DNA of 64,000 nucleotides, from the NCBI GenBank assembly GCA_965204755.1, contig OZ242011.1, positions 1,792,001 to 1,856,000 of the forward strand. Direction: 5' to 3'. Shown here in pieces: positions 1-64,000 of this stretch; the stretch's first letter is position 1; the number at the start of each line of letters is the position of its first letter. The stretch comes from Candidatus Marinacidobacterium sp. (GTDB lineage Bacteria; Acidobacteriota; Vicinamibacteria; Marinacidobacterales; Marinacidobacteraceae). The translations under genes were made by a program, and so were the position numbers. The notes beneath the pieces are model-generated. The model had not been told where the DNA came from, did no database searches, and worked only from the letters and a program-made list of their open reading frames with translations.

Positions 1-1131
1 CTGTTCCCGGAATTCCACCGGGCGTTCCCGCGGCGCGAGCCGGCCGCTCCCGGCCGACCGGGGCCGCCGCCTCCCACGATCGCGAACCCCGCGTACCTGC
101 TGGCCGCGCTGACTCGCTTGGCGGGCGGGCGAGCCGACCTCCTCTTCGCCGCCCGGGAGGACGAAGTCGTGGCCCGCGCCCCGGACCTGCTCGCCGGCCG
201 GGGAGGCGCCTCCTCACTCGAAGTCGTCCGCGGGAACGCACCCCCCGCCGCCCCGGCGCCCGCTCCGGGCGCCGACGACGCGACGGCGGCGGACGGCCCC
301 CGAACTCCCGCCGAGTCGCGCCGGCTCGCGCTCCACGCCCCGAACCCCGCCGATCGCGCGCGGGCCGCGGACGCCGCGGTGGAAGCCGACCCCGACGACC
401 CCGTCGCGCGACTGCTCCTCGGCTGTTCGCTCTCGGAACGAAAGGACCCGGCGGGAGCGGCGCGGGCCTTCCGGCTCGCCGCCGAGCGGGCCCCCGACCT
501 CGCCGCCGCCCACTTCGAACTCGGCAAGACCCTGATCCGACTCGACGACCTCGAAGGGGCGCTGGCGGCGTTTCGGCGGACGACCGAGACCCTGCCGGAA
601 TTCGCCTCCGGCTGGGCGAACGCCGGGGCGGCCCTCGGCGAGTTGGAGCGCCCGGCGGAAGCGCTCGCCGACCTGGAGCGCGCCGCCGAACTCGACCCGC
701 TCCACCACGCCCCGAGTTCCAACCTGGGCGTGACCCTGCGCGACCTCGGCCGCCTGGAAGAGGCGGAGGCGGCGTTCCGCCGGGCGCTGGAACTCGCTCC
801 GGACTTCGTCTTCGGCCGGTACAACCTGGCCGGCGTGGTCTATCTGCGCGGCCGGCACCGGGAGGCGGTGACCCTGTTCGAGGAGGCCCGCGCGAACGAC
901 CCGTCCGGCTCCGCCCGGCAGCGGCTGCTGCTGGCCGCCGCCCGGCTGGCCGCCGGCGACGAGGCCGGCGCCCTCGCCGAGTACGAGGGGACCTTCGCGT
1001 CGCTCGACGGCCGGATGCGGGAAGACATGCGGACGGTGGCCGAGTGGGACCTGAAGAACCTCGCCCGCCGCGTCGGCGTGAGCCCCGGACTCCGCCGCGC
1101 CGCCGACCTCCTGAAACGCGTCCGCGCCTGA
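1..1131 (+). CDS. TPR-repeat protein (5'-truncated by window edge)
   Basis: Frame is open from base 1. Multiple TPR units (AHFELGKTLIRLDDLEGALAAFRR; GWANAGAALGELERPAEALADLERA; NLGVTLRDLGRLEEAEAAFRRALEL). Confidence 0.85.
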   Translation: MFPEFHRAFPRREPAAPGRPGPPPPTIANPAYLLAALTRLAGGRADLLFAAREDEVVARAPDLLAGRGGASSLEVVRGNAPPAAPAPAPGADDATAADGPRTPAESRRLALHAPNPADRARAADAAVEADPDDPVARLLLGCSLSERKDPAGAARAFRLAAERAPDLAAAHFELGKTLIRLDDLEGALAAFRRTTETLPEFASGWANAGAALGELERPAEALADLERAAELDPLHHAPSSNLGVTLRDLGRLEEAEAAFRRALELAPDFVFGRYNLAGVVYLRGRHREAVTLFEEARANDPSGSARQRLLLAAARLAAGDEAGALAEYEGTFASLDGRMREDMRTVAEWDLKNLARRVGVSPGLRRAADLLKRVRA

Positions 1132-1315
1132 GCGTCCGACCGCGCGCCGGGCCCGGACCGGGCGAGGATTCGCCAAGGAAATCCGGCGGCGGGGACGCCT
1201 CCCCGGACGGCGCTTGACTTGGGCCGTCCGTGCGTCTATAAGCACCGGTTCCCCGTCGGTTCCGCGACGGCCGAGTTTCTGCCTCCCGCGCGGAGGATCC
1301 GGGAGAACGCGAGAC

Positions 1316-2803
1316 ATGAACCAACCCGAACGATCCGCCCGTCGGCTGCCCGCCGCCGCGCTGCTGCCCGCCGCCGCCGCGCTGCTCCTCGCCGCCGGCG
1401 CCGCCCCGGCGCAGGAATCCGCCGCGCGGCAGCAGAACGAGACCGTGGACGAGAGCCGGAAGCACCCGCTGCTCCCGGACCACGAAATCCTGAACGAGTT
1501 CGGGGTCATCAGTTCGAGCGGCCACGACGACGGCGGCTGGAACCTGCCCCCGGAACTCCGGGTTCCCGAGCAGTACCAGTACCGGCGCCGCGACCTCCAG
1601 TTGAAGGAGGTGGACCTCACCGGGAACCAACTCCCGCCGGTGCTCACCGAGATGCGCGTCCTCTCCAAGGAAGTCGCGCCGGGCGGCGAAGTCCGGGCCA
1701 TGGCCCGGGTAGTGTCCCCCTACAACAAGGCGCAGTCCTTCGTCTCGCTCTTCTACAACCGCGAGTTGGGCCGGGCGGCGACGATGTACATCAACTTCAA
1801 GCCCAACGAGAAGGACGACACCCTGTTCCTCGGCCGGGGCAAACTCTCGAAGTACGCGGCCCCCGGGCGCTATGTGGTCGGCACCACGATCATCGCGGAC
1901 AAGGTGGGGGACCGGAAGGCCTACTGGGCGGACTTCCACACGGCGATGCAGGAAGACGACGGCCAGCCCATCGGGTTCCAGGTCACCCAGGGTGACAGCG
2001 TGGACATCCAGGCGCCGACCTTGGTCTCGGTGGAAGTCGAGACCGACCGCGTCCGCGCCGGCGGCGGGCTGATCCGCTACAGCGTGCTGTCCGAGGACGA
2101 TGTCTCCGGGCCCACCGAGGCCGAGACGGTCTGGGTGTCCCCCTCGGGCTACCACCAGATCCGCTCCACCATGGTCATGGTGGGCGGCCAGCCGGGCCTC
2201 TTCCGCGGGGCGCTCCAGATCCCGCAGTGGTACGAGGGCGGGGAGTGGTACCTGATGCGGGTTTCGCTCAAGGACAACGCGACGAACATCCGCTACTACT
2301 TCAACCGCACCGAGCCGAAGATGGCGGCGGCCACCGTCCAGGTGGACCAGGAGCGGGAGATGGTGGACCAGACCCCGGCGAAGGTGCTGGCGGTGCAGTT
2401 CACCAAGACGGAAGCCAAGTTGGGCGAAGAAGTGGGGATCACCGTCCTCGCCGAGGACGACCTCTCCGGAGTCCGCGGGCTCGAGGGCTATGTCCGCTCG
2501 CCGAACGGCGCGGACGCGCTGAAGGTCAAGTTGAAGAGCCTCACCCCGGAGATGGGCGGCTATGTGGCGCTGAACCGGCCGTCGAAACTGCCGGAGCCCC
2601 ACATCTGGACCGGCTCGTTCACCGTGACGGACACGATGGAGTGGGGGGAATGGGAACTGGTGCGGCTCGGCATCTCCGACGCCGCCCGCAACTTCTACAC
2701 TTACTACGAGGGCCGGGACCCGGAGATCGAGGGCATCTCCGTCCGGTTCTACGACGAAGACACCGAATCCGCCGAGTCCGGCGGAAAGGAGGATCCTCGA
2801 TGA
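1316..2803 (+). CDS. Secreted protein with three tandem Ig-like beta-sandwich repeats
   Basis: ATG at 1316 followed by an Ala/Leu-rich Sec signal ending APA|Q. Three ~110-aa repeats with D..AP.L..V, EDD.SG, G.W...., D.A.N...Y motifs. Confidence 0.75.
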   Translation: MNQPERSARRLPAAALLPAAAALLLAAGAAPAQESAARQQNETVDESRKHPLLPDHEILNEFGVISSSGHDDGGWNLPPELRVPEQYQYRRRDLQLKEVDLTGNQLPPVLTEMRVLSKEVAPGGEVRAMARVVSPYNKAQSFVSLFYNRELGRAATMYINFKPNEKDDTLFLGRGKLSKYAAPGRYVVGTTIIADKVGDRKAYWADFHTAMQEDDGQPIGFQVTQGDSVDIQAPTLVSVEVETDRVRAGGGLIRYSVLSEDDVSGPTEAETVWVSPSGYHQIRSTMVMVGGQPGLFRGALQIPQWYEGGEWYLMRVSLKDNATNIRYYFNRTEPKMAAATVQVDQEREMVDQTPAKVLAVQFTKTEAKLGEEVGITVLAEDDLSGVRGLEGYVRSPNGADALKVKLKSLTPEMGGYVALNRPSKLPEPHIWTGSFTVTDTMEWGEWELVRLGISDAARNFYTYYEGRDPEIEGISVRFYDEDTESAESGGKEDPR

Positions 2804-4128: not shown

Positions 4129-4162
4129 CCGAAGACACCAACAACAACACAGGAGTTCCGAA

Positions 4163-4438
4163 ATGGACGAACTGAACCGCCGCGCCTTCCTTCGGGGAGC
4201 CGGCCTCGCCTTCGCCGGCGTCGTCGGCGCCGCTTCCTTCGCCGCCGGGCAGCAGGAGGAAGAAGAGAAGAAGTCCGAAGAGGACTCGGACGAGCAGGAG
4301 GAGTTGGACTACGACGCCCTCTTCGCCGAGGACTCCGGGGACGAGGACACCCGGGCCTGCCCGCAGTGCGGCGCTCTCATGTACCGCCAGGGCCGGACCT
4401 GGACCTGCGAGAACTGCGGCTACTCGTATGTGGAGTAG
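4163..4438 (+). CDS. Small Tat-signal protein with acidic linker and C-terminal CxxC-x13-CxxC zinc ribbon
   Basis: AGGAG RBS at 4151. NRRAFL twin-arginine signal, E/D-rich linker, CPQCG...CENCGY. Confidence 0.75.
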   Translation: MDELNRRAFLRGAGLAFAGVVGAASFAAGQQEEEEKKSEEDSDEQEELDYDALFAEDSGDEDTRACPQCGALMYRQGRTWTCENCGYSYVE

Positions 4439-4533
4439 GCGGGCCGCCTAGGTACTTCTCGCCGGACGCCGGGTCGGCGCGTTTCGCGCCGGCCCGGTCG
4501 TCTTTTTCCGGCTCGTTCCGAAACGACCGGTTG

Positions 4534-4574
4534 ACCGCCCCTCCGGCCGCCGGGCCGGGCGGGGCGGTTTTCTT
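4534..4574 (+). terminator. Rho-independent terminator
   Basis: ACCGCCCC-TCCGGCC/GGCCGGG-C-GGGGCGGT hairpin followed by TTTCTT, between convergent genes. Confidence 0.6.
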
Positions 4575-4592
4575 GTACGCCGCGCGCCCCGG

Positions 4593-5390: not shown

Positions 5391-5530
5391 GAAAACGGGT
5401 TGCTCTCCGGGGCGGGCCCGATCTCGGAGACGAAGCGGGGGCGGGCTCGATTTCCCCCGGGGGCCGGACCGTCGAGGAGGAATAGCATAAGCGCGAGAAT
5501 GCCTTTCGCCGCCGCCGTCCGCCGCTCCGG

Positions 5531-18867: not shown

Positions 18868-22857
<3,990 letters not shown>

Positions 22858-30725: not shown

Positions 30726-31290
30726 GGACTTCGCGACTCCAAACCGTTGAAAAAACGGAGATTAGAAAGACAAATCGCCGAAACGACAGCGCTACCGCGC
30801 AGCCGGATAGGGTACTGCCCCCCCTAGTTTCATGTCAAGCCTCCGCAACTCCGCGCCGGAGGCCGAAAGAGCCCTCCTTACCGTTCTTGGACTTCCGACC
30901 CGCCCATTCGCGGGGGGCGTTCGGATAGCGGGAGGGGCCGAAACAGATTCCCCGGACGAGCAGGGAGGGGCCCCGAGCGGGGGTTCGCGGACGGCCCGGA
31001 GACAGGAACGACCGATGGAACTAGGGCAGGGAAAACGACCCTTGACTCGGTATCCGACCCTGCTAGTTTCCGCCGCTCGCTCGCAGCGGGGCGGCCCCGG
31101 ACACCCCCCTTCGAGCCCCTTGGACGGCGGGTTCGAGCCGCCCCGAACTTCGGCGCCGGAACCGGATTTTCGGCGCTTCGAACCCGCCCGAGTCCCGTCT
31201 TCAGCCCCTCCTCGGTCGGCGCCGGACGCCGCCCGGCCTCGGCCGCCAGGCCGACGCCCCGACCGGCGTTCTCCGCTTCCCCACCTTGCC

Positions 31291-32703
31291 TTGACCCTAC
31301 GCCACAAGACTTCCGACCCGGCGGTCCGCGACTGCTGGAACGCGGCGATCTCCCGCATCCGCGAGACCCTCCCCGCCCGCGAATACCGAACCTGGTTCGC
31401 CCCGACCCGGTTCCTCGGCTCGGACGACGGCGCGATCCGCATCCTGGTGCCGAACCGCACCTTCGTGGCCAAGTTGGAGAACGGCTACGGCGCCCTTCTC
31501 CGGGAGACCCTCTCGCAGTGCGGAGCGCCCTCGACCGCGATCCGCTTCCGCATCTCCGGGACGCCGGTCCTCGCCACCTCCGACGCCGCCGGCGCGGAGC
31601 CCCAAGCCCACCCCATCACCCCGGAACACACCGACTCGATCCTCCGGGAGCCCGGCCCCGGCCTGATCGGGAACGGCCGGCTGGCCGAGAACCAGACCTT
31701 CGAGAGTTTCGTCGTCGGGGAGAGCAACCGCTTCGCCTTCGACGCCGCCCGTTCCGTCAGCAACCCCGGCATCGAGTACTCCCCCTACAACCCGCTGGTG
31801 ATCTACGGGCAGACCGGACTCGGCAAGACCCACCTGCTGAACGCGATCCGCCTCCGCGTCCGCGAACACAGCCCGGAACTCCGGGTCCTGGCCCTGAAGG
31901 GCGAGGCCTTCACCCGGCAGGTGGTGAGCGCCGCGCTGAGCAGCCGCCTCTTCGAACTCCGCGAGTGGTACAGCGGAGTGGATGTGTTCCTGGTGGACGA
32001 CATCCAGTTCATCTCCGGCCTCGGCACCTTCGGCCGCAGCACCCAGGAGTTCCTCCACGCGCTGGACGCGCTCGCCGAACGCGGCCGCCAGACCGTGCTC
32101 ACCCTCGACTGCCACCCCGGCGAGATCCCGAACCTCGACGGGCGTCTCCGCAGCCGCATGGAGAGCGGGCTGGCCACCGACCTGCGGCGGCCCGAGCCGG
32201 GCACCCGCCGGACCATCGTCCGCCGGAAGGCGGTCGCCGCCGGCGCCGACCTGCCGGACGAGATCGTCGAGAAGATCGCGTCTTCGGGGACCGGGTCCGT
32301 CTCCGAACTCGAAGGCGTGGTGAAACGCATCGTCGCCACCGCGCGGACCGAGGACGGCGAGTTCTCCACCCCGCTCGTGGAGAACCTGCTCGACGGGCTC
32401 CCCGGCGGCCGGAGGAAGCGCGTCCCGATCGGCGACATCATCGCCGCCACCGCGGCCGAATTCGGCGTCCCGGCGCTCCGGGTCCTGGGCAAGCAGCGCC
32501 AGCGGGACCTGGTCTCCGCCCGGCAGGTGGCGATGTTCCTCGCCCGGGAAGTCACCGAGTACAGCCTGAAGGAGATCGGCGAGGCCTTCCGCCGCCACCA
32601 CTCCACGGTCGCCCACGCGATCACCCGGGTGGAGCACGACCGGAAGCGCAATCCCGGCCTCGGCCGCATCATCGAGCGCCTCGCCCGCCAACTCGCGGGC
32701 TGA
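31291..32703 (+). CDS. dnaA: Chromosomal replication initiator DnaA (divergent; start estimated at TTG 31291)
   Basis: Domain I (W......I...YRTWF), TFESFVVGESN, YNPL.IYG.TGLGKTHL, DDIQF, RLRSR, ARQVAMFL; divergent from rpmH. Confidence 0.95.
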   Translation: MTLRHKTSDPAVRDCWNAAISRIRETLPAREYRTWFAPTRFLGSDDGAIRILVPNRTFVAKLENGYGALLRETLSQCGAPSTAIRFRISGTPVLATSDAAGAEPQAHPITPEHTDSILREPGPGLIGNGRLAENQTFESFVVGESNRFAFDAARSVSNPGIEYSPYNPLVIYGQTGLGKTHLLNAIRLRVREHSPELRVLALKGEAFTRQVVSAALSSRLFELREWYSGVDVFLVDDIQFISGLGTFGRSTQEFLHALDALAERGRQTVLTLDCHPGEIPNLDGRLRSRMESGLATDLRRPEPGTRRTIVRRKAVAAGADLPDEIVEKIASSGTGSVSELEGVVKRIVATARTEDGEFSTPLVENLLDGLPGGRRKRVPIGDIIAATAAEFGVPALRVLGKQRQRDLVSARQVAMFLAREVTEYSLKEIGEAFRRHHSTVAHAITRVEHDRKRNPGLGRIIERLARQLAG

Positions 32704-33241: not shown

Positions 33242-36944
<3,703 letters not shown>

Positions 36945-41215: not shown

Positions 41216-41824
41216 CTACTCTGAACTCGGGCCGCGGAGACGCTGCCACAGTGCGCAGTACTGCGCCAAGTTCTCGGGCAGTAGATCCCGGTGACGTGGG
41301 ACTGCCTCGATGACCTCGTTCATCTCGGGAGGCAGGACCACCTCTCCCATCTTCTCGGGAGCATGTATCTCTTCCACGGTTTGGCGCCCACCCTTCACAA
41401 TTCTCCGTGGAACATCATCGCGGCCTCCGATTTCCACGATCATCGCGGGGCGTTGGTTCACGATGTCCGCCGCCTTGGCGTCGTTAGACGTGTCGTAGTG
41501 CCAGTCTCCGGTGATCCGTGCGAGCCAAAACTTCAGATCCTCCGTCTTCGTCCAGACGAGATCGCCGATTCGGACTTTCCCCTTCCAACGATCCACATTC
41601 CCCTTGGGGTCATATCGCTCGTGTTCTTTGCGGCGCTCATCGCGGCGCGTGCGATAGTCGTCCCAAGTCAGGAACTCGCCTTCCGTGGCTTCCACTCGCC
41701 ATCCCATCCCAAGGACGGATCGCTCGCGGCAGAAGTCCTGTGCCCACCGTGCCTTCTGTTCGCGTGTCTTCGGTTCCTGTGCTGTTCCACCTGTGGGACG
41801 AAGGTTCAACCACCAAATGTGCAT
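41216..41824 (-). CDS. Hypothetical protein (lower GC), resembles N-terminal domains of Mrr-like/restriction proteins
   Basis: LGMGW...GDLVW......WLARITGDWHY...NQR pattern; composition differs from neighbours. Confidence 0.55.
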   Translation of the reverse strand: MHIWWLNLRPTGGTAQEPKTREQKARWAQDFCRERSVLGMGWRVEATEGEFLTWDDYRTRRDERRKEHERYDPKGNVDRWKGKVRIGDLVWTKTEDLKFWLARITGDWHYDTSNDAKAADIVNQRPAMIVEIGGRDDVPRRIVKGGRQTVEEIHAPEKMGEVVLPPEMNEVIEAVPRHRDLLPENLAQYCALWQRLRGPSSE

Positions 41825-47359: not shown

Positions 47360-48103
47360 CTAGGCGGGTTCGGGTCGTTCCCGGCCTTTCCCCCGCCGGC
47401 GCGGGGCCGGGCCGACCACCAGCGTGATCTCTCCGCGCATCGCCTCGGCCTCGACTTCGGCGGCGAGGGCGGAGAGGAGACCGAACCGGTTCTCCTCGAA
47501 CCGCTTGGTCATCTCGCGGCTGAGCGAGGCCTCCCGCTCCCCCAGCCGCTCCGCCAGGTCGCGCAGCAGCGCCGCCACCCGCCGGGCCGACTCGAACAGG
47601 ACCAGCGACCCCGGCGCCGCCGCCGCCCGGTCGAGGAACCGCCGCCGCGCCGCCCCCCGCCGGGGCGGCGGGAACCCGAGGAAGGTGAAGCAGTCGGTCG
47701 GCAACCCGGACACGGAGAGCGCCGCGGTGACCGCCGACGGCCCCGGCGCCGCCCGCACCGGAATCCCCGCGAGCCGCGCCGCCCGCACCAGCCGGTAGCC
47801 GGGGTCGGACAGCAGCGGCGTCCCGGCGTCGCAGACCAGCGCGACGGCTTCCCCGGCCCGGAGCCGGCCGATCAGGAAGTCCGTCCGCTCCGCCTCGTTG
47901 TGCTCGTGGTGCGAGACGAGCCGGGCGCCGAGTTCGAACCGGGTCACCAGTTTCCGCGTCACCCGCGTGTCCTCGCACGCCAGATGACGGACCCCGCGCA
48001 GGGTCTCCACCGCGCGAGGCGAGAGATCCCCCAGGTTCCCGATGGGCGTGGCCACGACGAACAGCACCCCCGGCGCGGCCCGTCCGTCTTCGCGCGTCTC
48101 CAC
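47360..48103 (-). CDS. rsmI: 16S rRNA C1402 2'-O-methyltransferase
   Basis: LFVVATPIGNLGD, CEDTR, DAGTPLLSDPG, PGPSA, FESARR, REMTKRFEE, RGEI. Confidence 0.95.
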   Translation of the reverse strand: METREDGRAAPGVLFVVATPIGNLGDLSPRAVETLRGVRHLACEDTRVTRKLVTRFELGARLVSHHEHNEAERTDFLIGRLRAGEAVALVCDAGTPLLSDPGYRLVRAARLAGIPVRAAPGPSAVTAALSVSGLPTDCFTFLGFPPPRRGAARRRFLDRAAAAPGSLVLFESARRVAALLRDLAERLGEREASLSREMTKRFEENRFGLLSALAAEVEAEAMRGEITLVVGPAPRRRGKGRERPEPA

Positions 48104-48184
48104 AGACCCCGCAACCGTACCGGGCGCCGTCGCCGCCTCGCCGCCACTTGGGGGTCGCGCCGGGAAGAGTTTCGGCCCCGATGA

Positions 48185-48520
48185 AGGTCTCGATCCGCAG
48201 TATCGAGTCGGCCAGGGTGTCGATCCGCGAGTCCGGGGCGAGGGCGGAGGGTGTCGATCCGCGAGTCGGGCGGGCCGAGGGGTGTCGATCTGGGAGTCCG
48301 GGCGGGGGCGAAGGGTGTCGATCCGCGAGTCCGGGCGGGGGCGAAGGGTGTCGATCCGCGGGCCGGGCCGGGGGCGAAGGGTGTCGATCCGCGGGCCGGG
48401 CCGGGGGCGAAGGGTGTCGATCCGGGAGTTCGGGCCGGGACGCAGGGTGTCGATCCGCGGGCCGGGCCGGGGGCGAAGGGTGTCGATCCGCGAGTCGGGC
48501 GGGCCGAGGGGTGTCGATCC
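48185..48520. repeat. Tandem array of 10 (+1 degenerate) 31-34 bp units, core GGGTGTCGATC
   Basis: Cores start at 48215, 48249, 48280, 48313, 48346, 48379, 48412, 48445, 48478 and 48509; six consecutive spacings of exactly 33 bp. Confidence 0.95.
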
Positions 48521-48642
48521 GTCCGCCCGAGAGGCCCGGGGCGCCGACGCCGAGTCCGGCAGGTCAGCCGGCGCGGGCGCCAGCCGCGCCGGCTGCCGCC
48601 ACGGCCCGAGGTCCGCTCGACGAACCGCCGCCATGCTCAGTC

Positions 48643-48812
48643 AGGCCCGGAAGGTCTTTCGCAAACCCTCGAATGCGAGAGGGGACTGCGCCTGGTAGTC
48701 CCCGTGGGGCCGCTCGGTGGCGCCGCAATGCCCTCCGCTCGGTAAGCCCGAGTCCCTTGTTTTGGAGTTGCCAGGCGCTCCTCAACCAGTTGGTGGAGCT
48801 AGTAGGACGCGG
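48643..48812 (+). ncRNA. Candidate structured RNA (family not identified)
   Basis: Long-range stem 48688-48702/48764-48778 with G-U pairs favouring the + strand, internal hairpins, and an alternative hairpin 48681-48703; intergenic between divergent genes. Confidence 0.4.
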
Positions 48813-49001
48813 CCCTTTCGAATGATGGTAGCGCGGACCGATACCGGTCGTCCGGCCTCTGGTGAGCAGGCGGCGAAGGCGCCCCAACCGGCGAATCCGG
48901 CGGGAACACGGAGAATTGGGCGCGCCGGCGCTCCGGCCCGGCCCCCCGTCGCGGCGACCCCTCGCCCGGCGCCCGCCACCCCCCGCCTCCGACCTCGACC
49001 C

Positions 49002-50051
49002 ATGGACTCCCTCCGCAGCGCTTACGCCGGACGCCGGGTCGTGGTTACGGGCGGCGCGGGTTTCATCGGGAGCCACCTCGCCGCCCGGCTTGCCGGGCTC
49101 GGCGCGGAAGTCGCGGCGCTGGATTCGTTCGCCCCCGGTTCCGGCGCCGATCCCCGGAACCTCCCCACCGCCGAATCGGCGCGACCGGGGCGGATCGAAC
49201 TCCACCGGGGCGACCTCCGCGACCGGGACGCCGCCGGCGCCGCCCTCTCCGGCGCGGAGGCGATCTTCCACTTGGCCGCCGCCAACGGCCACCGGGAGAG
49301 CATGATCCGCCCGACCGCCGACTACGAAGGCAACCTCGCGTCCGGCGTCGCCCTCTTCGCCGCCGCCTCGGCCCGCGCCCCCGCGGCCCGGATCGTCTTC
49401 GCCGGCACCCGCCAGATCTACGCCCCGGCGGGGCCGGAACCAGGCCGCCGCCTGCCGGCGACCGAGGCGCACCCGGTCTCCCCGCCCGATGTCCACGGCG
49501 TCCACAAGGAGGCCGTCGAACACCTGGGCCGCCACTGGGCGCGAACCGGCCCCGGGTCGTTCTCCGTCCTCCGCCTGACGAACACCTACGGCCCCCGCCA
49601 GCCGCTCGCCGGCCCCGGCGCCGGCTTCACCGGGGCTTTTCTGGCGCAGGCCCTCGCCGGAGACGAGATCCAAATCCTCGGCCCGCCCGGACTCCTTCGC
49701 GACCTGGTGCAGGTGGACGACGCGGTGGACGCTTTCCTGCTCGCCGCGGCCCCGACCGCCCCCGCCGGAACCTGGAACCTCGGCGCCGACCCGGTGACCC
49801 TCGAAGACTTCGCCCGCGCCGTCTTCCGCGCCCTCGGCCGCCCGCCGCGCCTCCGCTCCGGCCCGCTTCCGCCGGGCCTCGCCGGCGCCGCCCTCGGCGA
49901 CTTCCACTCGGACTGGAGCGCGATCCACCGCGACCTCGGTTGGTCGCCCCGCCGCCCGCTGGACGAAGGCCTCGCCGAAACGGTCCGCCACTTCCTCCGC
50001 TCAAGCGTCTCGCCCGCCGCTTCGCCCCCCGTTTCGCCCGCCGCGCCATGA
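49002..50051 (+). CDS. NAD-dependent nucleotide-sugar epimerase/dehydratase
   Basis: VTGGAGFIGSHL, FHLAA, LRLTNTYGPRQ, LRDLVQVDD; the YxxxK motif reads HGVHK. Confidence 0.88.
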   Translation: MDSLRSAYAGRRVVVTGGAGFIGSHLAARLAGLGAEVAALDSFAPGSGADPRNLPTAESARPGRIELHRGDLRDRDAAGAALSGAEAIFHLAAANGHRESMIRPTADYEGNLASGVALFAAASARAPAARIVFAGTRQIYAPAGPEPGRRLPATEAHPVSPPDVHGVHKEAVEHLGRHWARTGPGSFSVLRLTNTYGPRQPLAGPGAGFTGAFLAQALAGDEIQILGPPGLLRDLVQVDDAVDAFLLAAAPTAPAGTWNLGADPVTLEDFARAVFRALGRPPRLRSGPLPPGLAGAALGDFHSDWSAIHRDLGWSPRRPLDEGLAETVRHFLRSSVSPAASPPVSPAAP

Positions 50052-53325: not shown

Positions 53326-53401
53326 GCGCCCTTAGCTCAGCGGACAGAGCAACAGGCTACGAACCTGTAGGTCGGGTGTTCGAATCGCCCAGGGCGCGCC
53401 A
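53326..53401 (+). tRNA. tRNA-Arg (anticodon ACG)
   Basis: Acceptor GCGCCCT/AGGGCGC, TAGCTCAG D-arm, loop CT-ACG-AA, TTCGAAT T-loop, CCA. Confidence 0.95.
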
Positions 53402-53449: not shown

Positions 53450-54982
53450 ATGTTCCGTTTCCGAAGTCTGAGTCGAATCCGGCGCGTTTCCGGCGCCGTC
53501 GCGTTGAGCGCCGTCTTCGTCCCGGCGCTGCCCGCCGCGGCCCCGCAGGAGCGCGACCTCGACCTGGTGATCTCCCGCGGCCGCGTCCTCGACCCGGAAA
53601 CCGGCCTCGACGCGGTGCGCGATGTCGGCGTCACCGGCAACGAGATCGCCGTCATCAGCCGCGAAGTCCTCACGAACCGCCTCCGCCAGGGCGGAACCCT
53701 GCTCGACGCCTCCGGCAAGGTCGTATCGCCCGGCTTCATCGACCTCCACGCCCACGGCCAATCCGTGGAGGCCAACCGCTACCAGGCGATGGACGGCGTG
53801 ACCACCGCGCTCGAACTCGAAGGCGGCGTCCCCCGCGTGGCGCGATTCCTCGAGAGCCGCGCCGGAAACGCCATCCTCCACTACGGCGCCGCCGTCTCCC
53901 ACGGCGGCCTGCGCCTTCTCGGGATCCCCGACATCGCGGAACAGGTCGGGGAGATCCTCGACACGGAGAGCACCGGCGGCGAACTCATCATCGAGCACGC
54001 CAACCTCCTCCGTGAAGGCAACTACACCGCGGTCCCTCCGGGGCGGTACTCGGTCGTCAACGACGCGATCACCGCGGAACTCCGCGCCGGCGGCCTCGGC
54101 ATCGGGATGCCCCACCAGTACTACCCCGGCGCGAACCACACCGAGATCTACCGGATGTTCGAGTTGGCCGCCGAACTCGATGTCCCGATCTACACCCATG
54201 TGCGCGACATGGCGATCTCCGCCATCCAGGAAGTCCTGTCCAACGCGCTCGCCACCGGCGCCCCCCTCCACATCGTCCACCTGAACAGTTCGAGCCTCCA
54301 CCACCTGCCGGTAACCCTGGACCTCATCGCCGGCGCCCGCGCCGCCGGAGTGGATGTAACCACCGAAGCCTACCCCTACACCGCCGCCTCCACCGGCATC
54401 TCCTCCGCGATCTTCGACGAAGGCTGGCAGGAGAAACTGGGAATGACCTACGGCGACATCCAGATGCAGGACACCGGAATCCGCCTCACCGAAGAAACCT
54501 TCGACCTGTTCCGCGAAGAAGGCGGCACCGTCATCATGCACATGATGAAACCGGAGTTCATCGAGTTGGCGATGCGCACCCCCTTCGTCATCGTCGCCTC
54601 CGACGGAATGCCCTACGCCCCCGGCGCGCATCCCCGCTCCGCCGGCACTTTCTCCCGCGTCCTCGGCCGATATGTCCGCGACTGGAATGTCCTGTCGCTG
54701 AACGACGCCATCCGCCGCATGACCCTGCTGCCGGCGGAACGCCTCCAGGAAATCGCCCCCCTCATGCGCCGCAAGGGCCGCATCCAGATCGGCGCCATCG
54801 CCGACCTCACCGTCTTCGACCCGGCCACGATCATAGACACCGCCACCTTCGAGGACGACCTCTCCTACTCCGAGGGCGTCCACCATGTCGTCGTGGACGG
54901 CACCCCGGTCGTCCGGGACGGCGCCCTGCTGGAAGACGTCTTCCCCGGCAAACCCCTCGTCGGCCGCTACACTTCGGAGTAA
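53450..54982 (+). CDS. Secreted amidohydrolase (D-aminoacylase/D-glutamate deacylase family)
   Basis: Signal peptide; PGFIDLHAH, TEAYPY, ASDG, HPRSAGTF, KGRI..GA.ADLTVFD. Confidence 0.88.
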   Translation: MFRFRSLSRIRRVSGAVALSAVFVPALPAAAPQERDLDLVISRGRVLDPETGLDAVRDVGVTGNEIAVISREVLTNRLRQGGTLLDASGKVVSPGFIDLHAHGQSVEANRYQAMDGVTTALELEGGVPRVARFLESRAGNAILHYGAAVSHGGLRLLGIPDIAEQVGEILDTESTGGELIIEHANLLREGNYTAVPPGRYSVVNDAITAELRAGGLGIGMPHQYYPGANHTEIYRMFELAAELDVPIYTHVRDMAISAIQEVLSNALATGAPLHIVHLNSSSLHHLPVTLDLIAGARAAGVDVTTEAYPYTAASTGISSAIFDEGWQEKLGMTYGDIQMQDTGIRLTEETFDLFREEGGTVIMHMMKPEFIELAMRTPFVIVASDGMPYAPGAHPRSAGTFSRVLGRYVRDWNVLSLNDAIRRMTLLPAERLQEIAPLMRRKGRIQIGAIADLTVFDPATIIDTATFEDDLSYSEGVHHVVVDGTPVVRDGALLEDVFPGKPLVGRYTSE

Positions 54983-56440: not shown

Positions 56441-56785
56441 GACCGGTCGCCCGGATTCCGAGCACCTGAGTCCGGGCCCGGTCGGCGGCCGTTCGGGATT
56501 GGCGCCGGGGCGCCGGCTCGAAGACATACGACGAAATTTGTCGCTCTCTTGATCTATCGTTCCCGCCGCCGCCGGAAAGGGGGGTCGAGGTCGGCCCGTT
56601 GGGGGCTCTCCAGACGCTCCGAAGAGCGGCGAGGAAACGCCTATGCGATACTGCCCTACAATGAACATCGTGCGGCTCGGCACCCGACTCCGGAGTGCGC
56701 CGCGCAGAACGACGAAAGAAGATATCCAGAGCGAGGCCGGCGCTTCCCGGCGGTCGAGCGGACGGAGAAGGGAGATGCCGTCGAC

Positions 56786-57859
56786 ATGAGTACAACCGAT
56801 TCGTCGCCGCGGGAGAGCGGCCAGCGTTCGGCGACATCTGCCCCGGAGCGGGTGTCCGGACCGCAGACCGGCAGGAAACGGTCTTCCCTTCCAGTTTCCA
56901 CTTTTCGCGTCGCCGTTGCGATGTCGTTCGTGATCTACTGGATTTGGGGCGTCCTCACCTATCCGTTTTTCGACACCTTCGCCGACGATTTTCCGTTCGC
57001 GGACCGCGGCCCCGAGAGTCTCGCGTCTTCGGCGGTCGTGGTTGTGTTGTTCGCGGCCGTTGCCGTCGTGGGTTGGCTGAAGAACCGCGCGGAGTTTCGC
57101 CGCGCCGTCAAGGCCGTCGAGCAAGATCCGACATCCCGCATCTCGCCGCGAATACACCGGTTCCTCGAGAGGATAGATCCGACCTTCGCCCAACGGAAGG
57201 ACGGATGGAGTCGTCGCGCAGCCGAGTTCGTCGATGAAGATCTGGAGTCTCCCGACTCATTGCGAGAAGCAGTAAGCCAGTATTTCGCCAAGATCGCCCC
57301 GACGATGGCCTTTCTAACGTCGTCGAAGAAGAGGAAGATCGTCCGGCTTCGTGGCGCCATCGAGAGACTCCCCGAGTCAGTGCGAAGAAACGAAGCTCGC
57401 GAGTGGATGGCCCCGACTCGCAGCGCCTTCGAGATATTGTTTCTCGTCTTCATGCCGACTTATCTGGTCGTCAATGTGGCCGAGTGGATGGCCGGTCGAC
57501 CTTACTGGGGAGGGATCCGATTCGAGGCCTTCTTCGCATCGTTAGCCGTGACCTTCGTGTCGATCGTCATAGCGACTATCGTTCGTGTGCAACGAACGCG
57601 GAAGGACTTCGGCGAGTCGCTGGAGGGCGCATCCACCGTAGGCCTGTCAGGTCTCGCGATCGCGGAGGTGGTCGTCAATGGCCCGAGAAGCGTGGCGCAT
57701 TTCCTCGGCATGTGGTTGGCCCGCTTTTTCCTGCTTCTGAGAGTACGCAAGTGGACCACTACGATCGTGTTCGTTGGCACCCTGCTTCTTCTCTCACGAG
57801 CCTTCGTCGCTCTGTACTGCGTCATGCCTTGGACTTCACCCTGCACCACACTATTCTGA
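56786..57859 (+). CDS. Multi-pass membrane protein of unknown function (lower GC)
   Basis: About six hydrophobic segments separated by a ~110-aa soluble domain; contains ACGT and AGCT sites that native genes lack. Confidence 0.65.
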   Translation: MSTTDSSPRESGQRSATSAPERVSGPQTGRKRSSLPVSTFRVAVAMSFVIYWIWGVLTYPFFDTFADDFPFADRGPESLASSAVVVVLFAAVAVVGWLKNRAEFRRAVKAVEQDPTSRISPRIHRFLERIDPTFAQRKDGWSRRAAEFVDEDLESPDSLREAVSQYFAKIAPTMAFLTSSKKRKIVRLRGAIERLPESVRRNEAREWMAPTRSAFEILFLVFMPTYLVVNVAEWMAGRPYWGGIRFEAFFASLAVTFVSIVIATIVRVQRTRKDFGESLEGASTVGLSGLAIAEVVVNGPRSVAHFLGMWLARFFLLLRVRKWTTTIVFVGTLLLLSRAFVALYCVMPWTSPCTTLF

Positions 57860-57941
57860 ATTCTGAAGAAGCGCCCGCCGATGTCGTTGCCTTCGGGGCT
57901 CGTGCGAAGGAAGTGACGGATGTCGCCGGAGGTCGGACCAT

Positions 57942-59567: not shown

Positions 59568-59807
59568 GCGTTGAGTATGGCCGGACCGCCGAGGAGGCGC
59601 GGGTTGCCGGAACGGCTCCGCCGCCCAGCCCGGCCCTGACCGCCCGGGCGCCCGGCCTCGCCGGGATCGAGACCCGAATTCGGCCTCGTGGGGCCCGCTC
59701 ACCGTCAATTTTCCGTCGTTCAACGGAGAACCCAGCGCGCCCGACCCCCGGCGGGCGAAATTCGGCGCCCTACCGAACCGAGCCCGCCGGAGGTCTCACC
59801 GAACACC

Positions 59808-62687
59808 ATGCACGAATACGACCGCGCCGCCGTTCGCGGCTACCTGTTGAACGCCGTCCGCGTCGCGCTGCGGAACCGCAAGGCCGCGGCGCGGCTGGCC
59901 GACTGGGTTCGCTCCAACCGCGGCGAACTGGACGAGGAGGGGATCGCGGACCTCTACGCCGTCTGCGAGACCCGCGAAGAACCCGACTCCGACCCGAACG
60001 GCTACCGAGGAATGGTTCGCGGCGGGTTCGAGTCGCCGCGCCGGGCGACCGATCGGGACCTCGCCTTCCTCTCCGAGGTCGCCGCCGCCCTCGCCGAGAC
60101 ACCGATCCTCACGCCCGGAGACGAACTCTTCTCGCGAAGCCCCACCGCTCGAGCAGCGCACCTGTTCGCGTCCCGGCTCGGATTCGACGGCGTTTCGGCT
60201 GCCGTGATCCACCTGGGTCATCTCCACGAAGAATCGGGAGTCGTCCAGAGTCTTTGGGACAACATCCACGAAAGCCGCAAGGACCCCGTCGCAACGACCG
60301 CGCTCCTGCTCGGCGCCGGTACGAAACCGGTGGACCACGCGCTGCTCGCGCTGCTCGAGGCCGGCATCTTCCGTCGCGATCGCTGGAATTCGTCGTCACT
60401 CGTCAGCAGTGTCACCGGCGGCATCGAGTCGATCTGGCAACCGCCGGTCGAGAACGACCGCCAACTCGTCGAACGCCTGCTCACGGGCCCCACCGAGCCG
60501 TCACTGGCGCTCGACCAGTTCTCCCACCTGCCGGACCGCGACGAAGCCGTCGCCCTCCTGGCCGGCGCCCTTCGGGACGCGGCCCCGGGAGTGAACCTCC
60601 TCCTGCACGGCCGCCCCGGGACCGGCAAGACCGAATTCGCCAAGACCCTGGCGGCCGCGGCGGGCGGTTGCCTCTACTCCATCGGCGAACCCGTGCCCGA
60701 CTCCGCTTCCTGGAAGCGTGACGGCGACCGGTGCCCCGAACTGCGCCGCGCCGACCTTCTCCTGAAGACGGAGCGGAAAGCGGTACTGCTCTGCGACGAA
60801 TCGGACGATGTCTTCGCCCCGCAGAGGCACGAAGAATCTCGCGATCGCCTCTTCCGGCTCCGGCTCCTCGAAGAGAACCGGACGCCCACGATCTACACGG
60901 CGAACCGAATCGACACCCTCGACGAGGCCGTGCTGCGCCGCTTCACGATCGCGCTGCGCTTCACCGCCCTCTCCCCGCGCCGGCGGACGACGATGTTTCG
61001 CCGAATGCTCGAAGAATCGAAACTTCCCGAACTGGAGGCCGCCGAAGCAAACCCGGAACTCGCAAATCGCCTGTCGGTCGAACTCGAAGCCCCGCCCGGA
61101 GTCGTGGAACGGGCGATCCTCGCCACCCGACTCACCGGAGGCGGAAAAGCCGCCCTGTTCCGCCACGCGGAGCGCCTAGAACGCACGATCTCCGGCGTAC
61201 GCGCGATCCCCCGGCTGGGCGCCCCCGTCCGGCCGAAGCACCCGTGGGCCGCTTTCTCCCACCTCGGCGCGGACGCCGAAGATGCCCGGCGCTCGCTGGC
61301 CGCCGCCGTCTTCGGAGAGCGCGGCGAAACGCCCGAAGAACCGCGCAAGGGAGTGAACTTCCTCTTCTACGGCCCTCCCGGCACCGGCAAAACGGAGTTC
61401 GCCGCGACGCTCTGCGCCGAGATCGGCGCCTGCCTCTATTCCGTCGGTCAGCGGGAGTTCGGCCCCGACGCTCGCGTAGCGGCCGACCGCTGGGAGTGTC
61501 TCGAATACGCGCTGGAATCGCTCGCCGACGAACCGGGCGCGGTAATCCTCTTCGACGAGATGGAGGACCTCCCGGGTATGCCGAAACACTGGATGAACCG
61601 CGTCCTCGAAGAGAACCGGACGCCGATCCTCTGGGCCTGCAACGCGACGGACTACTACCGAGCGTGCGAACCCTTCTTCCTCGACCGGATGCTCCTCTCC
61701 GTGGAATTCCGCTCGCTGCCCCCGCCCGCGAAACGGGAAATCTACGAAGGAATCGTCTTGAAGCGCGGCGTCGCGGACGAGACCTCCGCGGCGCTCGCCG
61801 ACGAGTTCTCCCGGATGCCCGATGTGACCCCGCGCCAGGTAACTCTCGCTTCCGCCTGGCCGGCGGTGGAAGACGGCGACGCCGACGGCATCCGCCGCAA
61901 CCTCGACCGGAAGCGCCGCCTGCGCCGCGGCGCCCCGCCGGCGTCACTCCCGAAGCCGGCCCTCTACGACCCGAAACTCCTCCGCGCCGACTGCGACCTC
62001 CTCGAACTTGCCGACCGGATCGTCCGCTGCGGCCCCCGTCGAATGGGGCTCCTCTTCTCCGGCCCGCCCGGAACCGGGAAGACCGAGTTCGTCCGCCACC
62101 TGGCGAAGCGCTGGGATCGGGAGATCCTGCCGCGCCGCGCTTCGGACCTGCTCGACCGGTATGTCGGGGAGAGCGAGAAGAACATCGCCCGCGCCTTCGC
62201 CGAGGCCCGCGACCTGGACGCGATCCTCGTGCTCGACGAAGCGGACTCGCTGCTGGCCGACCGGCGCGCGGCGCAACACCGCTGGGAACTCGGCCAGGTG
62301 AACGAACTGCTCGGCCAGATGGAGGCGCACCCGCTGCCGTTCGCCTGCACCACGAACTTCGCTGACGCGCTCGATCCGGCTGCCGCGCGGCGCTTCCTGT
62401 TCCGCGCCGAGTTCCGCTGTCTCGACCGCGCCGGCATCGCCCGGGCCTTCCGCCTGTTCTTCGAAGCGGACGCGCCGCCGGAAGCGCTCGCCCTCGAAGG
62501 TCTCACTCCCGCCGACTTCGCGAATGCCCGCGAACGCGCCATCGTCCTCGGCTTCCGGGACGAGCCCGCTCGCATCGTCGAGGACTTGCGCCGCGAGGGC
62601 CGAGCCAAGGGCGGGCCGGAGAGGCCGATCGGGTTCGCTTCCGCCACTTCCGGTCGGCGGTCGCTCCCCGTGACCCCGCCGGCGTGA
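59808..62687 (+). CDS. AAA+ ATPase with three tandem AAA modules
   Basis: Walker A GRPGTGKT, GPPGTGKT, GPPGTGKT; Walker B LCDE, LFDE, VLDE; SRH-like LDEAVLRRF, FFLDRM, LDPAAARRF. Confidence 0.9.
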   Translation: MHEYDRAAVRGYLLNAVRVALRNRKAAARLADWVRSNRGELDEEGIADLYAVCETREEPDSDPNGYRGMVRGGFESPRRATDRDLAFLSEVAAALAETPILTPGDELFSRSPTARAAHLFASRLGFDGVSAAVIHLGHLHEESGVVQSLWDNIHESRKDPVATTALLLGAGTKPVDHALLALLEAGIFRRDRWNSSSLVSSVTGGIESIWQPPVENDRQLVERLLTGPTEPSLALDQFSHLPDRDEAVALLAGALRDAAPGVNLLLHGRPGTGKTEFAKTLAAAAGGCLYSIGEPVPDSASWKRDGDRCPELRRADLLLKTERKAVLLCDESDDVFAPQRHEESRDRLFRLRLLEENRTPTIYTANRIDTLDEAVLRRFTIALRFTALSPRRRTTMFRRMLEESKLPELEAAEANPELANRLSVELEAPPGVVERAILATRLTGGGKAALFRHAERLERTISGVRAIPRLGAPVRPKHPWAAFSHLGADAEDARRSLAAAVFGERGETPEEPRKGVNFLFYGPPGTGKTEFAATLCAEIGACLYSVGQREFGPDARVAADRWECLEYALESLADEPGAVILFDEMEDLPGMPKHWMNRVLEENRTPILWACNATDYYRACEPFFLDRMLLSVEFRSLPPPAKREIYEGIVLKRGVADETSAALADEFSRMPDVTPRQVTLASAWPAVEDGDADGIRRNLDRKRRLRRGAPPASLPKPALYDPKLLRADCDLLELADRIVRCGPRRMGLLFSGPPGTGKTEFVRHLAKRWDREILPRRASDLLDRYVGESEKNIARAFAEARDLDAILVLDEADSLLADRRAAQHRWELGQVNELLGQMEAHPLPFACTTNFADALDPAAARRFLFRAEFRCLDRAGIARAFRLFFEADAPPEALALEGLTPADFANARERAIVLGFRDEPARIVEDLRREGRAKGGPERPIGFASATSGRRSLPVTPPA

Positions 62688-62981
62688 CCGAAACCACTTT
62701 CCTCGAATGAGCGCCCGAACCGCGACCGCTTCTGACGCAGCGACGGTGCAGGATTCGGGATGACGCGCCGCTCGGGAACGCCGCAACGCGATCGTGGCAA
62801 GCCCGCAACGGACGACCGATACCGATGCCATACGCCATAGACCGGTCGCGGCGAATCGCCGGGATCCGCCGACGAGAACGCCAACACGACCGCAGAAGAC
62901 GACCCCGATGAACGAATCCGCCCCCGCCGAACGGGGACACCCATTCCCTCCGTCACCGAATTACCGCCGAGGACGACTTCC

Positions 62982-63980
62982 ATGAACCACACCGACATCG
63001 CCACCGAACTGCCCGCCCCCGCCGCTCCGTCTCCGCGCGCGGCCGCCGATCCGCGCGACCGCTGCTTTTCCACGGGAAGAACCTACGGGCGGCGGCTCGA
63101 CTCCGGATGCCCGGACTGCGAACACCTTCCCGCTCCCGGCGCACGCGCCGGCGATACACCCCGGGTGATTCCGGCCTGCTCCACCTGTTTCCCGGCCGAT
63201 ACGGAACGAAGCGACTACGAATTCACCTTCGAGACTCCCGCCTTCGGCGACTGGATGGAGCGGGATATGGAGAGGGCGTGCCTCCGCTGCGGCGAGCGCG
63301 ACAATCCTCCCTACGGCGTCCTCCGCTGGCGCGGCCGCGCCGCCCCGCCGCGCTGCGACTGCGAGTTGCGCTGGACGGCCGCCGCCACCGCGTGGACGAG
63401 CGCCGCCGGGCTCCTCGTCCTCCCCCGCGGCGCCGCCGTCCCGACCGGCGACGGCCCGCAGGGCGGCCCCGTTCCGGTCCGCGTCTCGCTCTGGAAACGC
63501 GCCGAATACCGAGCCGCCTCCGCCCTCTTCCCCGACCCGGACACCGCCCGGCTCGCGGCGGTCACCGTGGATGCCGAAGGCGCGGTCCTCGAAGTCCGCG
63601 AAGCCGCCTTCCCGGAGAGTCTCGGCGACAGCGCCGAACCCACGCTCGCCGCGCCCGGCCCGATCCTCACCGTCGCCGCCATCCGTCCCGACCGCGCCGA
63701 GGCGCGAAAGGCGGCCCACCACCGCCTCGCCATCGCGCGAAGGCGCGCCCCGCAGCGCCTCGACCTGGACTTCCCGCTGGACCTCCCGCTCGTCGCGCCC
63801 GACCACGAGTTCTCCGACCGAGGCCCCGCCCTCCGTTTCGAGAACTGGCCCGCCGCGCTCGCCGGCGACTGGACGGCGTATTCCGCCACGCGCTTCGACG
63901 ACTCCCGGCTCCTGACCGCGGAACGCCCCGGCCGCCACACCTGCGCGGCGTGCGTCCCGGCCCCGAAGGAGTCGCCATAG
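62982..63980 (+). CDS. Cys-rich hypothetical protein
   Basis: CPDC, CSTC, CLRC, CDC and terminal CAAC motifs; native-like codon usage. Confidence 0.6.
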   Translation: MNHTDIATELPAPAAPSPRAAADPRDRCFSTGRTYGRRLDSGCPDCEHLPAPGARAGDTPRVIPACSTCFPADTERSDYEFTFETPAFGDWMERDMERACLRCGERDNPPYGVLRWRGRAAPPRCDCELRWTAAATAWTSAAGLLVLPRGAAVPTGDGPQGGPVPVRVSLWKRAEYRAASALFPDPDTARLAAVTVDAEGAVLEVREAAFPESLGDSAEPTLAAPGPILTVAAIRPDRAEARKAAHHRLAIARRRAPQRLDLDFPLDLPLVAPDHEFSDRGPALRFENWPAALAGDWTAYSATRFDDSRLLTAERPGRHTCAACVPAPKESP

Positions 63981-64000
63981 CGCGCCTTCCTTCCCGCCAG

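Follow-up and report, generated by a model that had tools for sequence, protein, structure and literature searches.

What has removed two four-letter palindromes, ACGT and AGCT, from a bacterial chromosome? The question arises from a 64,000-nt stretch of Candidatus Marinacidobacterium sp., an acidobacterium of soil/marine type (NCBI GenBank assembly GCA_965204755.1, contig OZ242011.1, positions 1,792,001 to 1,856,000 of the forward strand), hereafter the window. It corresponds to G000:C1:1792001-1856000 of a genome (G000) assembled as a single contig of 3,975,858 bp with 71.7% GC, and its content, as identified with Pfam, includes the replication-origin gene set dnaA (30832-32703), dnaN, gyrB (34437-36944) and gyrA together with ATP synthase genes. 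A first-pass annotation, made from the letters of the window, had described a near-complete loss of both words, ascribed it to long residence of methyltransferases or restriction enzymes and taken deamination of 5-methylcytosine (5mC) as the maker of the replacement words. We confirm that the depletion is real, exact and extreme, and the data favour selection against the words themselves as its cause. Long-lasting purifying selection, with restriction as the most likely agent, has probably purged both words.

Depletion of two palindromes

Exact counting over the window returned four copies of ACGT (positions 41294, 41488, 54936 and 57317) and three of AGCT (48797, 53334 and 57394), matching to the base the positions previously found by eye, with none overlooked. 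From base composition (71.1% GC), ~169 copies of each word are expected per strand (the rough first estimate had been ~150), and a maximal-order Markov model predicts 96 ACGT and 117 AGCT (both-strand values halved to per-strand values), giving observed/expected (O/E) ratios of 0.041 and 0.026. Across the genome, 265 ACGT sites stand against ~10,250 expected by composition (O/E 0.026) and ~7,150 by the Markov model (O/E 0.037), and 332 AGCT sites against ~10,250 (O/E 0.032) and ~7,450 (O/E 0.045). Both words, short palindromes of the Type II kind, therefore sit far from the Markov expectation, which the first-pass annotation had named as a test of its claim, and below the ratio of 0.78 at or under which avoidance is called by Rusinov et al. 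(2015; PMC4687349). Non-palindromic orderings of the same four letters, proposed at the same time as controls, show no comparable depletion (Markov O/E 0.76–1.01); of the 16 reverse-complement classes formed by ordering A, C, G and T, only three (ACGT, AGCT and CTAG) have values under 0.6. CTAG (Markov O/E 0.131) is low in every relative examined too and was dropped from the purge, since its depletion is a general trait across all relatives. The lack of TTAA in the window (0 copies versus ~2 expected by the Markov model) was also set aside, the expectation being too small to carry meaning.

Codon choice in native genes

Rough gene calls based on the GC content of third codon positions (GC3) gave 1885 genes. 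The 1458 with a GC3 of at least 0.85 and a length of at least 450 bp were kept, yielding a native gene set of 2.13 Mb after removal of the first 30 codons of each gene, and the expectation for each word and codon phase was calculated from the actual amino-acid pairs and overall codon usage. Both words are ~100-fold depleted over this set. ACGT occurs 9 times against 1257 expected in phase 1, 28 against 2821 in phase 2 and 9 against 102 in phase 3, and AGCT 12 times against 1083, 22 against 3933 and 5 against 124; O/E is 0.006–0.011 in phases 1 and 2 and 0.04–0.09 in phase 3. Native intergenic gaps (506 gaps, 66 kb) hold 6 ACGT and 12 AGCT, against 68 and 76 expected by the Markov model.

The loss is written into codon pairs. 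Aspartate before valine is GAT 1403 times and GAC 12 times (99.2% GAT), compared with a GAC:GAT ratio of 35849:3153 elsewhere (GAC 91.9%, GAT 8%); by our own arithmetic this is an odds shift of ~1300-fold, which corresponds to a 2Ne*s of only ~7. Asn, His and Tyr before Val take the T-ending codon in 98.7–99.6% of cases, Leu after xAG is TTG in 98.4% (3.4% elsewhere), and Glu, Lys and Gln before CTN take the A-ending codon in 98.7–99.8%. Before T, Thr is written ACG in 0.3% of cases (39.6% elsewhere) and Ser is written AGC in 0.3% (26.9% elsewhere). The spellings noticed at first reading (of the style GAT GTN, NAA CTN and NAG TTG) hold genome-wide and in 30 native-looking genes of the window, where Asp before Val is GAT 27 times and GAC once, Asn, His or Tyr before Val is T-ending in 47 of 47 cases, Leu after xAG is TTG 27 times, TTA once and CTN never, and Glu, Gln or Lys before CTN is A-ending in 117 of 117.

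Methylated motifs are a source of systematic long-read errors, and the assembly is a single contig, as might suit an assembly or base-calling artefact at such motifs. The replacements, however, respect the reading frame and leave the encoded amino acid unchanged in each of the three phases (AGC to TCC is one of them), which excludes a sequencing artefact; the chance left to it is negligible. The rRNA and tRNA genes retain 59 sites, and the pattern recurs in four separate assemblies, one of them fragmented (410 contigs).

A separate property of codon usage in G000 as a whole is that T-ending codons make up 4–18.5% of four-fold families before T, compared with ~0.3–2% before A or G. This xxT|T preference is a strong general context effect, unrelated to ACGT and AGCT.

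Selection and mutational decay

The first-pass annotation had derived the replacement words from mutational decay, in which AluI-type and HpyCH4IV-type C5 methylases act on AG5mCT and A5mCGT and the methylated cytosines deaminate to AGTT/AACT and ATGT/ACAT faster than the sites are recreated. The genome does encode six C5 methyltransferases (M1–M6, below); ACAT and AACT are over-represented (O/E 1.66 and 1.56), AGT|T is enriched 13-fold, and phases 1 and 2, which offer a silent C-to-T change, are depleted 4–10 times more strongly than phase 3. This last difference (0.006–0.011 compared with 0.04–0.09) counts against selection as the whole account, leaving room for deamination. The replacement words themselves are silent on mechanism, because the code offers no synonymous way out in a single step other than GAT GTN, NAA CTN and NAG TTG.

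Phase 3 is more telling. In xxA|CGT and xxA|GCT both C-to-T products are non-synonymous, replacing Arg by Cys or His and Ala by Val or Thr, yet these contexts are 11–25-fold depleted (9/102 and 5/124), and depletion is thus not confined to positions that tolerate the C-to-T product; xxA stands at 4.2% and 3.2% before CGC and GCC, compared with 0.4% and 0.2% before CGT and GCT. Depletion where no synonymous C-to-T route exists disfavours a purely mutational process under protein constraint. Nor does a silent product accumulate in excess of the usage imposed by the code: before T, Thr is written ACC in 78%, ACT in 20% and ACA in 1.3% of cases, which is the xxN|T usage of other four-fold families minus G, and ACA|T, the silent deamination product of ACG|T, shows no excess.

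The same picture was obtained when 10 housekeeping genes of the window were aligned with orthologues in 15 non-depleted family genomes. These relatives hold 252 ACGT and 318 AGCT site-instances (not independent, as several relatives share sites), both residues are conserved in 114 ACGT and 136 AGCT instances, and G000 retains the site in 0 of the 250. All replacements are synonymous (ATGT 104, AACT 96, AGTT 18, ACC|T 6, and TCC|T 14 versus AGT|T 4); ACG|T became ACC|T six times, ACT|T once and ACA|T never, and AGC|T mostly became TCC|T, for which three changes are needed. The ~1300-fold Asp shift is implausible as a mutation-rate ratio and, to our knowledge, far exceeds any 5mC hot-spot factor. 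Variants of a repeated 12-mer (described below) end in GT, CC or GC, never in C-to-T products, and six genes for Vsr endonucleases, which act in the repair of T:G mismatches, adjoin five of the six C5 methylases. Deamination is not the main cause of the depletion; it may add to the effect. Mutational decay as the maker of the replacements is quite unlikely, and this part of the first-pass interpretation is not supported.

Sites that survive

The 597 ACGT and AGCT sites left in the genome comprise 59 in rRNA and tRNA genes, 95 in native high-GC3 coding DNA (57% of the genome) and 443 elsewhere. Clustering is pronounced: 49 clusters, which cover 146 kb of DNA mostly lower in GC, account for 367 of the 597 sites, and the local GC content at surviving sites has a median of 0.663, versus 0.720 for the genome. 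Recently acquired and constrained sequence thus escapes the purge. The 16S rRNA holds four ACGT and six AGCT, the 23S rRNA two ACGT and 16 AGCT, and AGCT occurs in 23 of 67 tRNA calls made by ARAGORN (many of the 67 likely being spurious in GC-rich DNA), mostly at tRNA position 9 in the D-arm.

In the window, the suggestion that survivors mark foreign DNA or constrained RNA largely held, fitting five of the seven sites. Two ACGT sites (41294 and 41488) lie in an open reading frame (ORF) at 41216..41824 on the minus strand with a GC3 of 0.69 and no Pfam family; this is atypical and probably recently acquired DNA. The ORF at 56549..57859 on the plus strand (GC3 0.72, no Pfam family) is also atypical DNA; it contains ACGT at 57317, AGCT at 57394 and GTCGAC at 56780 and 57495. 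The AGCT at 53334 belongs to the conserved UAGCUCAG D-arm of a tRNA-Arg(ACG) gene (53326..53401, plus strand) and is kept by RNA structure. The two sites that do not fit, 54936 and 48797, are in native-looking DNA. The former, the sole ACGT that any native gene of the window contains, is read in the phase xAC|GTx (Asp-Val) and lies in a 14-bp perfect palindrome, GGAAGACGTCTTCC (54931..54944, plus strand), 40 nt before the stop codon of an amidohydrolase gene (53450-54982); this palindrome may be functional, for example as a binding site or other constrained element. The latter, an AGCT overlapping CTAG (48797..48800), occupies the native-looking divergent intergenic or 5' region (GC 0.75) between genes at 47360-48634 (minus strand) and ~49000-50051 (plus strand).

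Outside the window, an AT-rich 12-mer, AATTGTGTATAG, is present in 100 exact copies at nine loci of G000:C1 (near 357.9k, 756.0k, 1208.0k, 1660.0k, 2045.5k, 2895.4k, 2970.8k, 3119.1k and 3494.2k). Each locus consists of two sub-arrays in the same orientation, with 3–9 copies at a mostly 20–21-bp period, around a GC-rich core of 190–330 bp, and several loci have a flanking segment in common. AGCT ends 69 of the 100 copies, which accounts for 21% of all AGCT in the genome (69/332). The arrays look like protein-binding iteron or centromere-like arrays, or the ends of mobile elements.

Distribution among relatives

The family comprises 28 genomes, of which 24 besides G000 were sampled (G441–G443 lie outside the sample), with 80 kb from G001, 60 kb from G005 and 8–20 kb from each of 20 non-depleted genomes. 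For gyrB, the closest named records are Acidobacteriota metagenome-assembled genomes labelled Vicinamibacteria or 'Candidatus Marinacidobacterium', at 69–74% identity. G001, which belongs to the same genus (GyrB 86% identical), is purged of both words, with 18 ACGT and 17 AGCT observed against 205 of each expected by composition. In three genomes from other genera the loss concerns ACGT: G005 has 10 of 180 expected (and 160 of 180 AGCT, not depleted), G007 has 8 of 52 and G009 has 26 of 54, a mild dip, with AGCT normal in the latter two. The codon rules follow suit, G001 obeying both and G005 and G007 only the Asp-Val rule. Neither purge was clear in the other 20 of the 24 sampled family genomes, the mild ACGT dip of G009 apart, and the AGCT purge is confined to one genus in the family. 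Arranged by composition O/E for ACGT, the family forms a graded series (~1, 0.48, 0.15, 0.09, 0.056 and 0.026). None of 79 distant gyrB loci lacks both words; 12 of them have a weaker ACGT dip (composition O/E 0.17–0.36). Among open-access papers, we found none on word usage in this lineage.

The long residence proposed in the first-pass annotation agrees with these findings: the depletion is a lineage trait common to G000 and G001, and two methyltransferase modules occupy conserved loci in both species.

A third depleted set

After ACGT and AGCT, the next most depleted restriction-type words in the genome are GTCGAC (416 sites versus 2077 expected, O/E 0.20), whose apparent rarity in the window had also been noticed at first reading, GTAGAC/GTCTAC (O/E 0.185) and GTATAC (O/E 0.38). 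Together they make up GTMKAC, which we take to be the AccI-type set. Exact counting found three GTCGAC in the window, the two in the atypical ORF given above and one native-gene copy at 18961..18966 in the gene for the ATP synthase beta subunit (18868-20283). GTCGAC is low in G001 and G005 as well.

One of the C5 methylases, M4 (at 2.394 Mb of G000), is accompanied by a BbrUII/HgiDII-family enzyme, a GmrSD gene and an N4/N6 methylase. The 653-aa protein beside M4 matches NF050001 over its whole length (residues 17–640) with 351.3 bits, below the equivalog cut-off of 550 bits, and by this profile match it is a relative of the BbrUII/HgiDII family and not a certified member. It resembles HgiDII and BbrUII, which target GTCGAC, in its full-length NF050001 match, and GTCGAC is five-fold depleted in this genome; on the other side stand the score below 550 bits and a depleted set that is the degenerate GTMKAC, not GTCGAC alone. 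The M4 pair and the depletion of GTMKAC serve as an internal positive control for restriction as the agent.

Selection might also have acted for reasons unrelated to restriction, through a cost of methylated sites (imposed by Type IV enzymes such as GmrSD, or in transcription) or through reservation of the words as signals for binding proteins. Two GmrSD-type genes adjoin methylases, 69 of the 332 AGCT sites belong to one motif repeated in nine arrays, and one native ACGT lies in a 14-bp palindrome. Against these stand the facts that both words are classic Type II targets and that GTMKAC is depleted beside a restriction-enzyme homologue; nothing found here links a regulator to either word, and the repeated motif tolerates GT, CC or GC in place of CT. 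We consider selection of this kind highly improbable.

Candidate modules

A search of the genome for C5 methyltransferases, as the first-pass annotation had advised, returned the six enzymes M1–M6, besides ~14 full-length enzymes among 26 N6_N4 hits, ~8 N6_Mtase hits and one Dam-like enzyme. If restriction is the agent, the leading candidates would be the modules around M3 and M6. M3 is followed by genes matching PDC-M33A and PDC-M33B, with genes for a Vsr, a Dam-like methylase and a 161-aa protein nearby; M6 (455 aa) has genes of 627 and 345 aa before it and a Vsr-like gene after it. The M3-module ATPase (A') and its partner (B') match PDC-M33A (8e-93) and PDC-M33B (2.5e-40) of PADLOC, which lists the pair only as candidate PDC-M33. 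In translation, A' has intact GHKL motifs (REVIQNSLDA and GGSYGIGK, corresponding to ExxxNxxD and GxxGxG) and is encoded next to the C5 methylase. A structural model of A' (pLDDT 80.6) gave Foldseek matches to TRAP1/Hsp90 and topoisomerase VI-B (E 7e-9 to 1e-7), consistent with a GHKL and transducer-like fold; in the model, the GHKL part is followed by a disordered, Gly-rich linker of 100 residues and then by a small beta domain. The B' model (pLDDT 86.8) comprises two FN3-like sandwiches and helices, with only FN3/Ig-like matches (Z ≤8.1). Protein A of the M6 module is a distant homologue of A' (hhalign 97.8%), and protein B is not detectably related to B'; Vsr-family genes are present in both modules. 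Atlas look-ups for B' and for B returned unnamed clusters only, and searches of a 5.8-billion-protein set returned thousands of M3 and M6 homologues with generic names only.

Iyer, Abhiman & Aravind (2008; PMC2292703) predicted that operons combining a GHKL ATPase, a cytosine methylase and Vsr are restriction-modification systems. As in the MORC and paraMORC modules outlined there, a GHKL ATPase is encoded in the M3 module together with a C5 methylase and Vsr; in contrast to them, neither a helicase nor a nuclease domain was recognisable in the two partners that were folded, and the small partner is FN3-like.

The distribution of the modules is suggestive. The M3 module and both its flanks are syntenic between G000 and G001, with module proteins 54–72% and flank genes 65–91% identical. 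At the M6 locus, the upstream gene is common to G001 at 84% and the module has diverged there (methylase 42–43%, A 25%); G005 holds a closer copy (A 50%, B 44%, M6 71–73%, Vsr 41%). Of the 28 genomes in the family, only G000 and G001 carry M3-type genes, and only these two and G005 carry M6-type genes; G001 combines three C5 methylases with three depleted word sets, and G005 has a single C5 methylase and a purge of ACGT only. The most economical mapping, to be taken as a weak one, would link M6-type enzymes to ACGT, M3-type to AGCT and M4-type to GTMKAC. A further candidate agent would be an orphan N4/N6 methyltransferase (L251:4879-6123), which is flanked by genes for an amidohydrolase and a beta-lactamase-like protein and has no nuclease neighbour. 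A 374-aa ORF after it was rejected as wrong frame (GC3 0.53), the real gene there being the beta-lactamase-like one. An N4/N6 methylase at 2.357 Mb of G000 was also rejected as determinant, being present in 16 of the 28 family genomes, including non-depleted ones.

Several observations weigh against these assignments and against restriction as the agent. The co-occurrence behind the mapping spans at most 2–3 independent lineages, and an M6-type gene was not found in G007 (86% complete), though G007 has lost ACGT. The orphan methylase (present in G000, in G001 at 80%, in G007 at 59% and as a fragment in G005) tracks the loss of ACGT at least as well as M6-type genes do. Across the 46 metagenome contigs (out of 80 loci) that carry M6 homologues at 48–63% and are no shorter than 5 kb, ACGT was not depleted (aggregate O/E 1.00), nor was depletion found in the phylum genomes G421, G389, G189, G386 and G074, which carry M6-like enzymes (53–60%), or in G298 and G389 with M3-like enzymes (60%). 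Association outside the family thus gives no support either way for M6 as the ACGT enzyme; specificity may differ at such distance, or presence alone may be insufficient. No gene with proven ACGT or AGCT specificity was found among 16 + 11 + 88 methylase-adjacent ORFs scanned with NCBIfam, Pfam and PADLOC, and no nuclease fold was found in searches with the models of A' (Foldseek only) or B'; with no nuclease evident besides Vsr, the M3 module may serve methylation combined with repair instead of restriction. The presence of a system does not by itself predict avoidance, as CCWGG is undepleted (O/E 0.94) despite the EcoRII-type pair at M1.

The 88 ORFs, scanned with NCBIfam, came from 19 further loci (ORFs with a GC3 of at least 0.90 or longer than 1300 aa left out) and yielded BPTD_3080-family enzymes and other defence genes only. 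These methylase neighbourhoods (L267–L285) are densely packed with defence genes and contain MADS-like genes, Septu (PtuA/PtuB), a DUF1156 anti-phage gene, IteA, DISARM/Zorya-like helicases, two BPTD_3080-family restriction enzymes and Dnd-associated DGQHR proteins.

The remaining C5 methylases are less informative for the two words. M1, a C5 methylase beside an EcoRII-type enzyme, belongs to a locus (L106, G000:C1:1048601-1054000) that includes the EcoRII-type enzyme, the Dcm-like methylase (with a 74% orthologue in G006), a 1001-aa double-GHKL protein and Vsr; with CCWGG undepleted, the pair is probably a recent arrival. M2 lies 5 kb to the right of the window in a row of three genes (L107:6991-9866; G000 1,859,991-1,862,866), with Vsr upstream and a 330-aa ORF downstream (a weak PADLOC match to REase_II, E 2e-4). 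C5-methylase searches of five relatives returned no orthologue of M2. An ankyrin-repeat gene is located at L107:11415-12671. M5 has a Vsr gene and GHKL genes nearby.

A probable long-lasting restriction agent

The purge could instead be a fossil, the work of restriction systems now lost or inactive, with the present methylases orphan or unrelated. Avoidance that outlasts its system is described in PMC4687349, no ACGT or AGCT endonuclease was identifiable among the scanned methylase-adjacent ORFs, the N4/N6 methylase that tracks ACGT has no nuclease neighbour and is only a fragment in G005, and the system at the M6 locus of G001 is strongly diverged. However, native genes stand at 0.6–1% of expectation, at or near equilibrium, in two species whose GyrB proteins are 14% apart, and the depletion in G001 is only slightly weaker; without ongoing selection, the GC3 pressure (GAC 92% elsewhere) should restore sites. 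A fossil signal is unlikely, although less so than the other alternatives weighed above.

Long-resident modification and restriction systems are the best available explanation. We infer that restriction-modification systems specific for 4-bp words would have been carried since before the split of the genus's two known species, and that each extra chromosomal site would pose a small risk of self-cleavage or a handicap in DNA exchange between strains. Such selection, weak at each site but persistent, would have driven codon and codon-pair choice near fixation wherever the code and RNA structure allow. Sites that cannot be removed (in rRNA, in tRNA D-arms and in a repeated binding-site motif) and those of recently acquired DNA would remain, and would need protection by methylation.

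A more specific proposal carries more doubt than confidence: that the four-gene M3 and M6 modules, which share one architecture of C5 methyltransferase, GHKL ATPase, small partner and Vsr, are ATP-dependent restriction systems with 4-bp palindromic targets (ACGT for M6-type, AGCT for M3-type) and a Vsr-like cutter. The GHKL motor would then link sites and the Vsr-like protein would cut. If such systems resisted silencing, or methylation gave only partial protection from them, their long retention would drive a lineage to strip the targets almost wholly from its genome and to rewrite its codon-pair usage in doing so.

Relation to known systems

Few natural cases show as cleanly as this chromosome that a tiny cost per site, if sustained over a long time, can override a strong codon bias throughout a cellular genome. 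The graded series in the family could be used to date the residence of restriction systems and to estimate selection coefficients, and the surviving sites flag foreign DNA and constrained elements. Binning by tetranucleotides and gene finders are expected to behave oddly on this lineage, and DNA to be introduced into it should be free of ACGT, AGCT and GTMKAC. For the uncharacterised class of methylase-GHKL-Vsr modules, a testable prediction of targets is obtained.

Depletion of CpG through deamination of 5-methylcytosine occurs in vertebrates and in bacteria with CG methylases. The present case resembles it in the scarcity of a word that can be methylated and in the abundance of the C-to-T products of that word. 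It differs in that depletion persists where C-to-T changes are non-synonymous, the silent product ACA is not in excess, Vsr genes are present and the effect is ~10–100 times larger. Near-total purges of restriction words by codon choice are found in the genomes of phages and archaeal viruses; here, too, the word is almost wholly removed through codon choice and survives only where constrained. Unlike in viruses, the purged genome is a 4-Mb cellular chromosome, and only two 4-mers and one set of 6-mers are affected, despite dozens of methyltransferases.

Avoidance of Type II restriction sites in prokaryotic host genomes was reportedly described by Gelfand and Koonin in 1997 and by Rocha in 2001. 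The purge shares with such avoidance, as presented by Rusinov et al. (PMC4687349) and Shaw et al. (2023; PMC10359461), that palindromic restriction-type words of 4 or 6 bp fall below the Markov expectation. According to PMC4687349, avoidance is typical of long-resident orthodox Type II systems, is stronger with longer residence, is common to close relatives and can outlast the system. In PMC10359461, 4-bp palindromes give little systematic signal. In contrast to the avoidance covered in these texts, the ratio here is 0.03–0.045 in the genome and 0.006–0.011 in native genes, with 99% rewiring of codon pairs. The phenomenon is of a known kind, restriction-site avoidance, in an extreme form that, at ~0.01 in native cellular genes, lies at the far end of its range.

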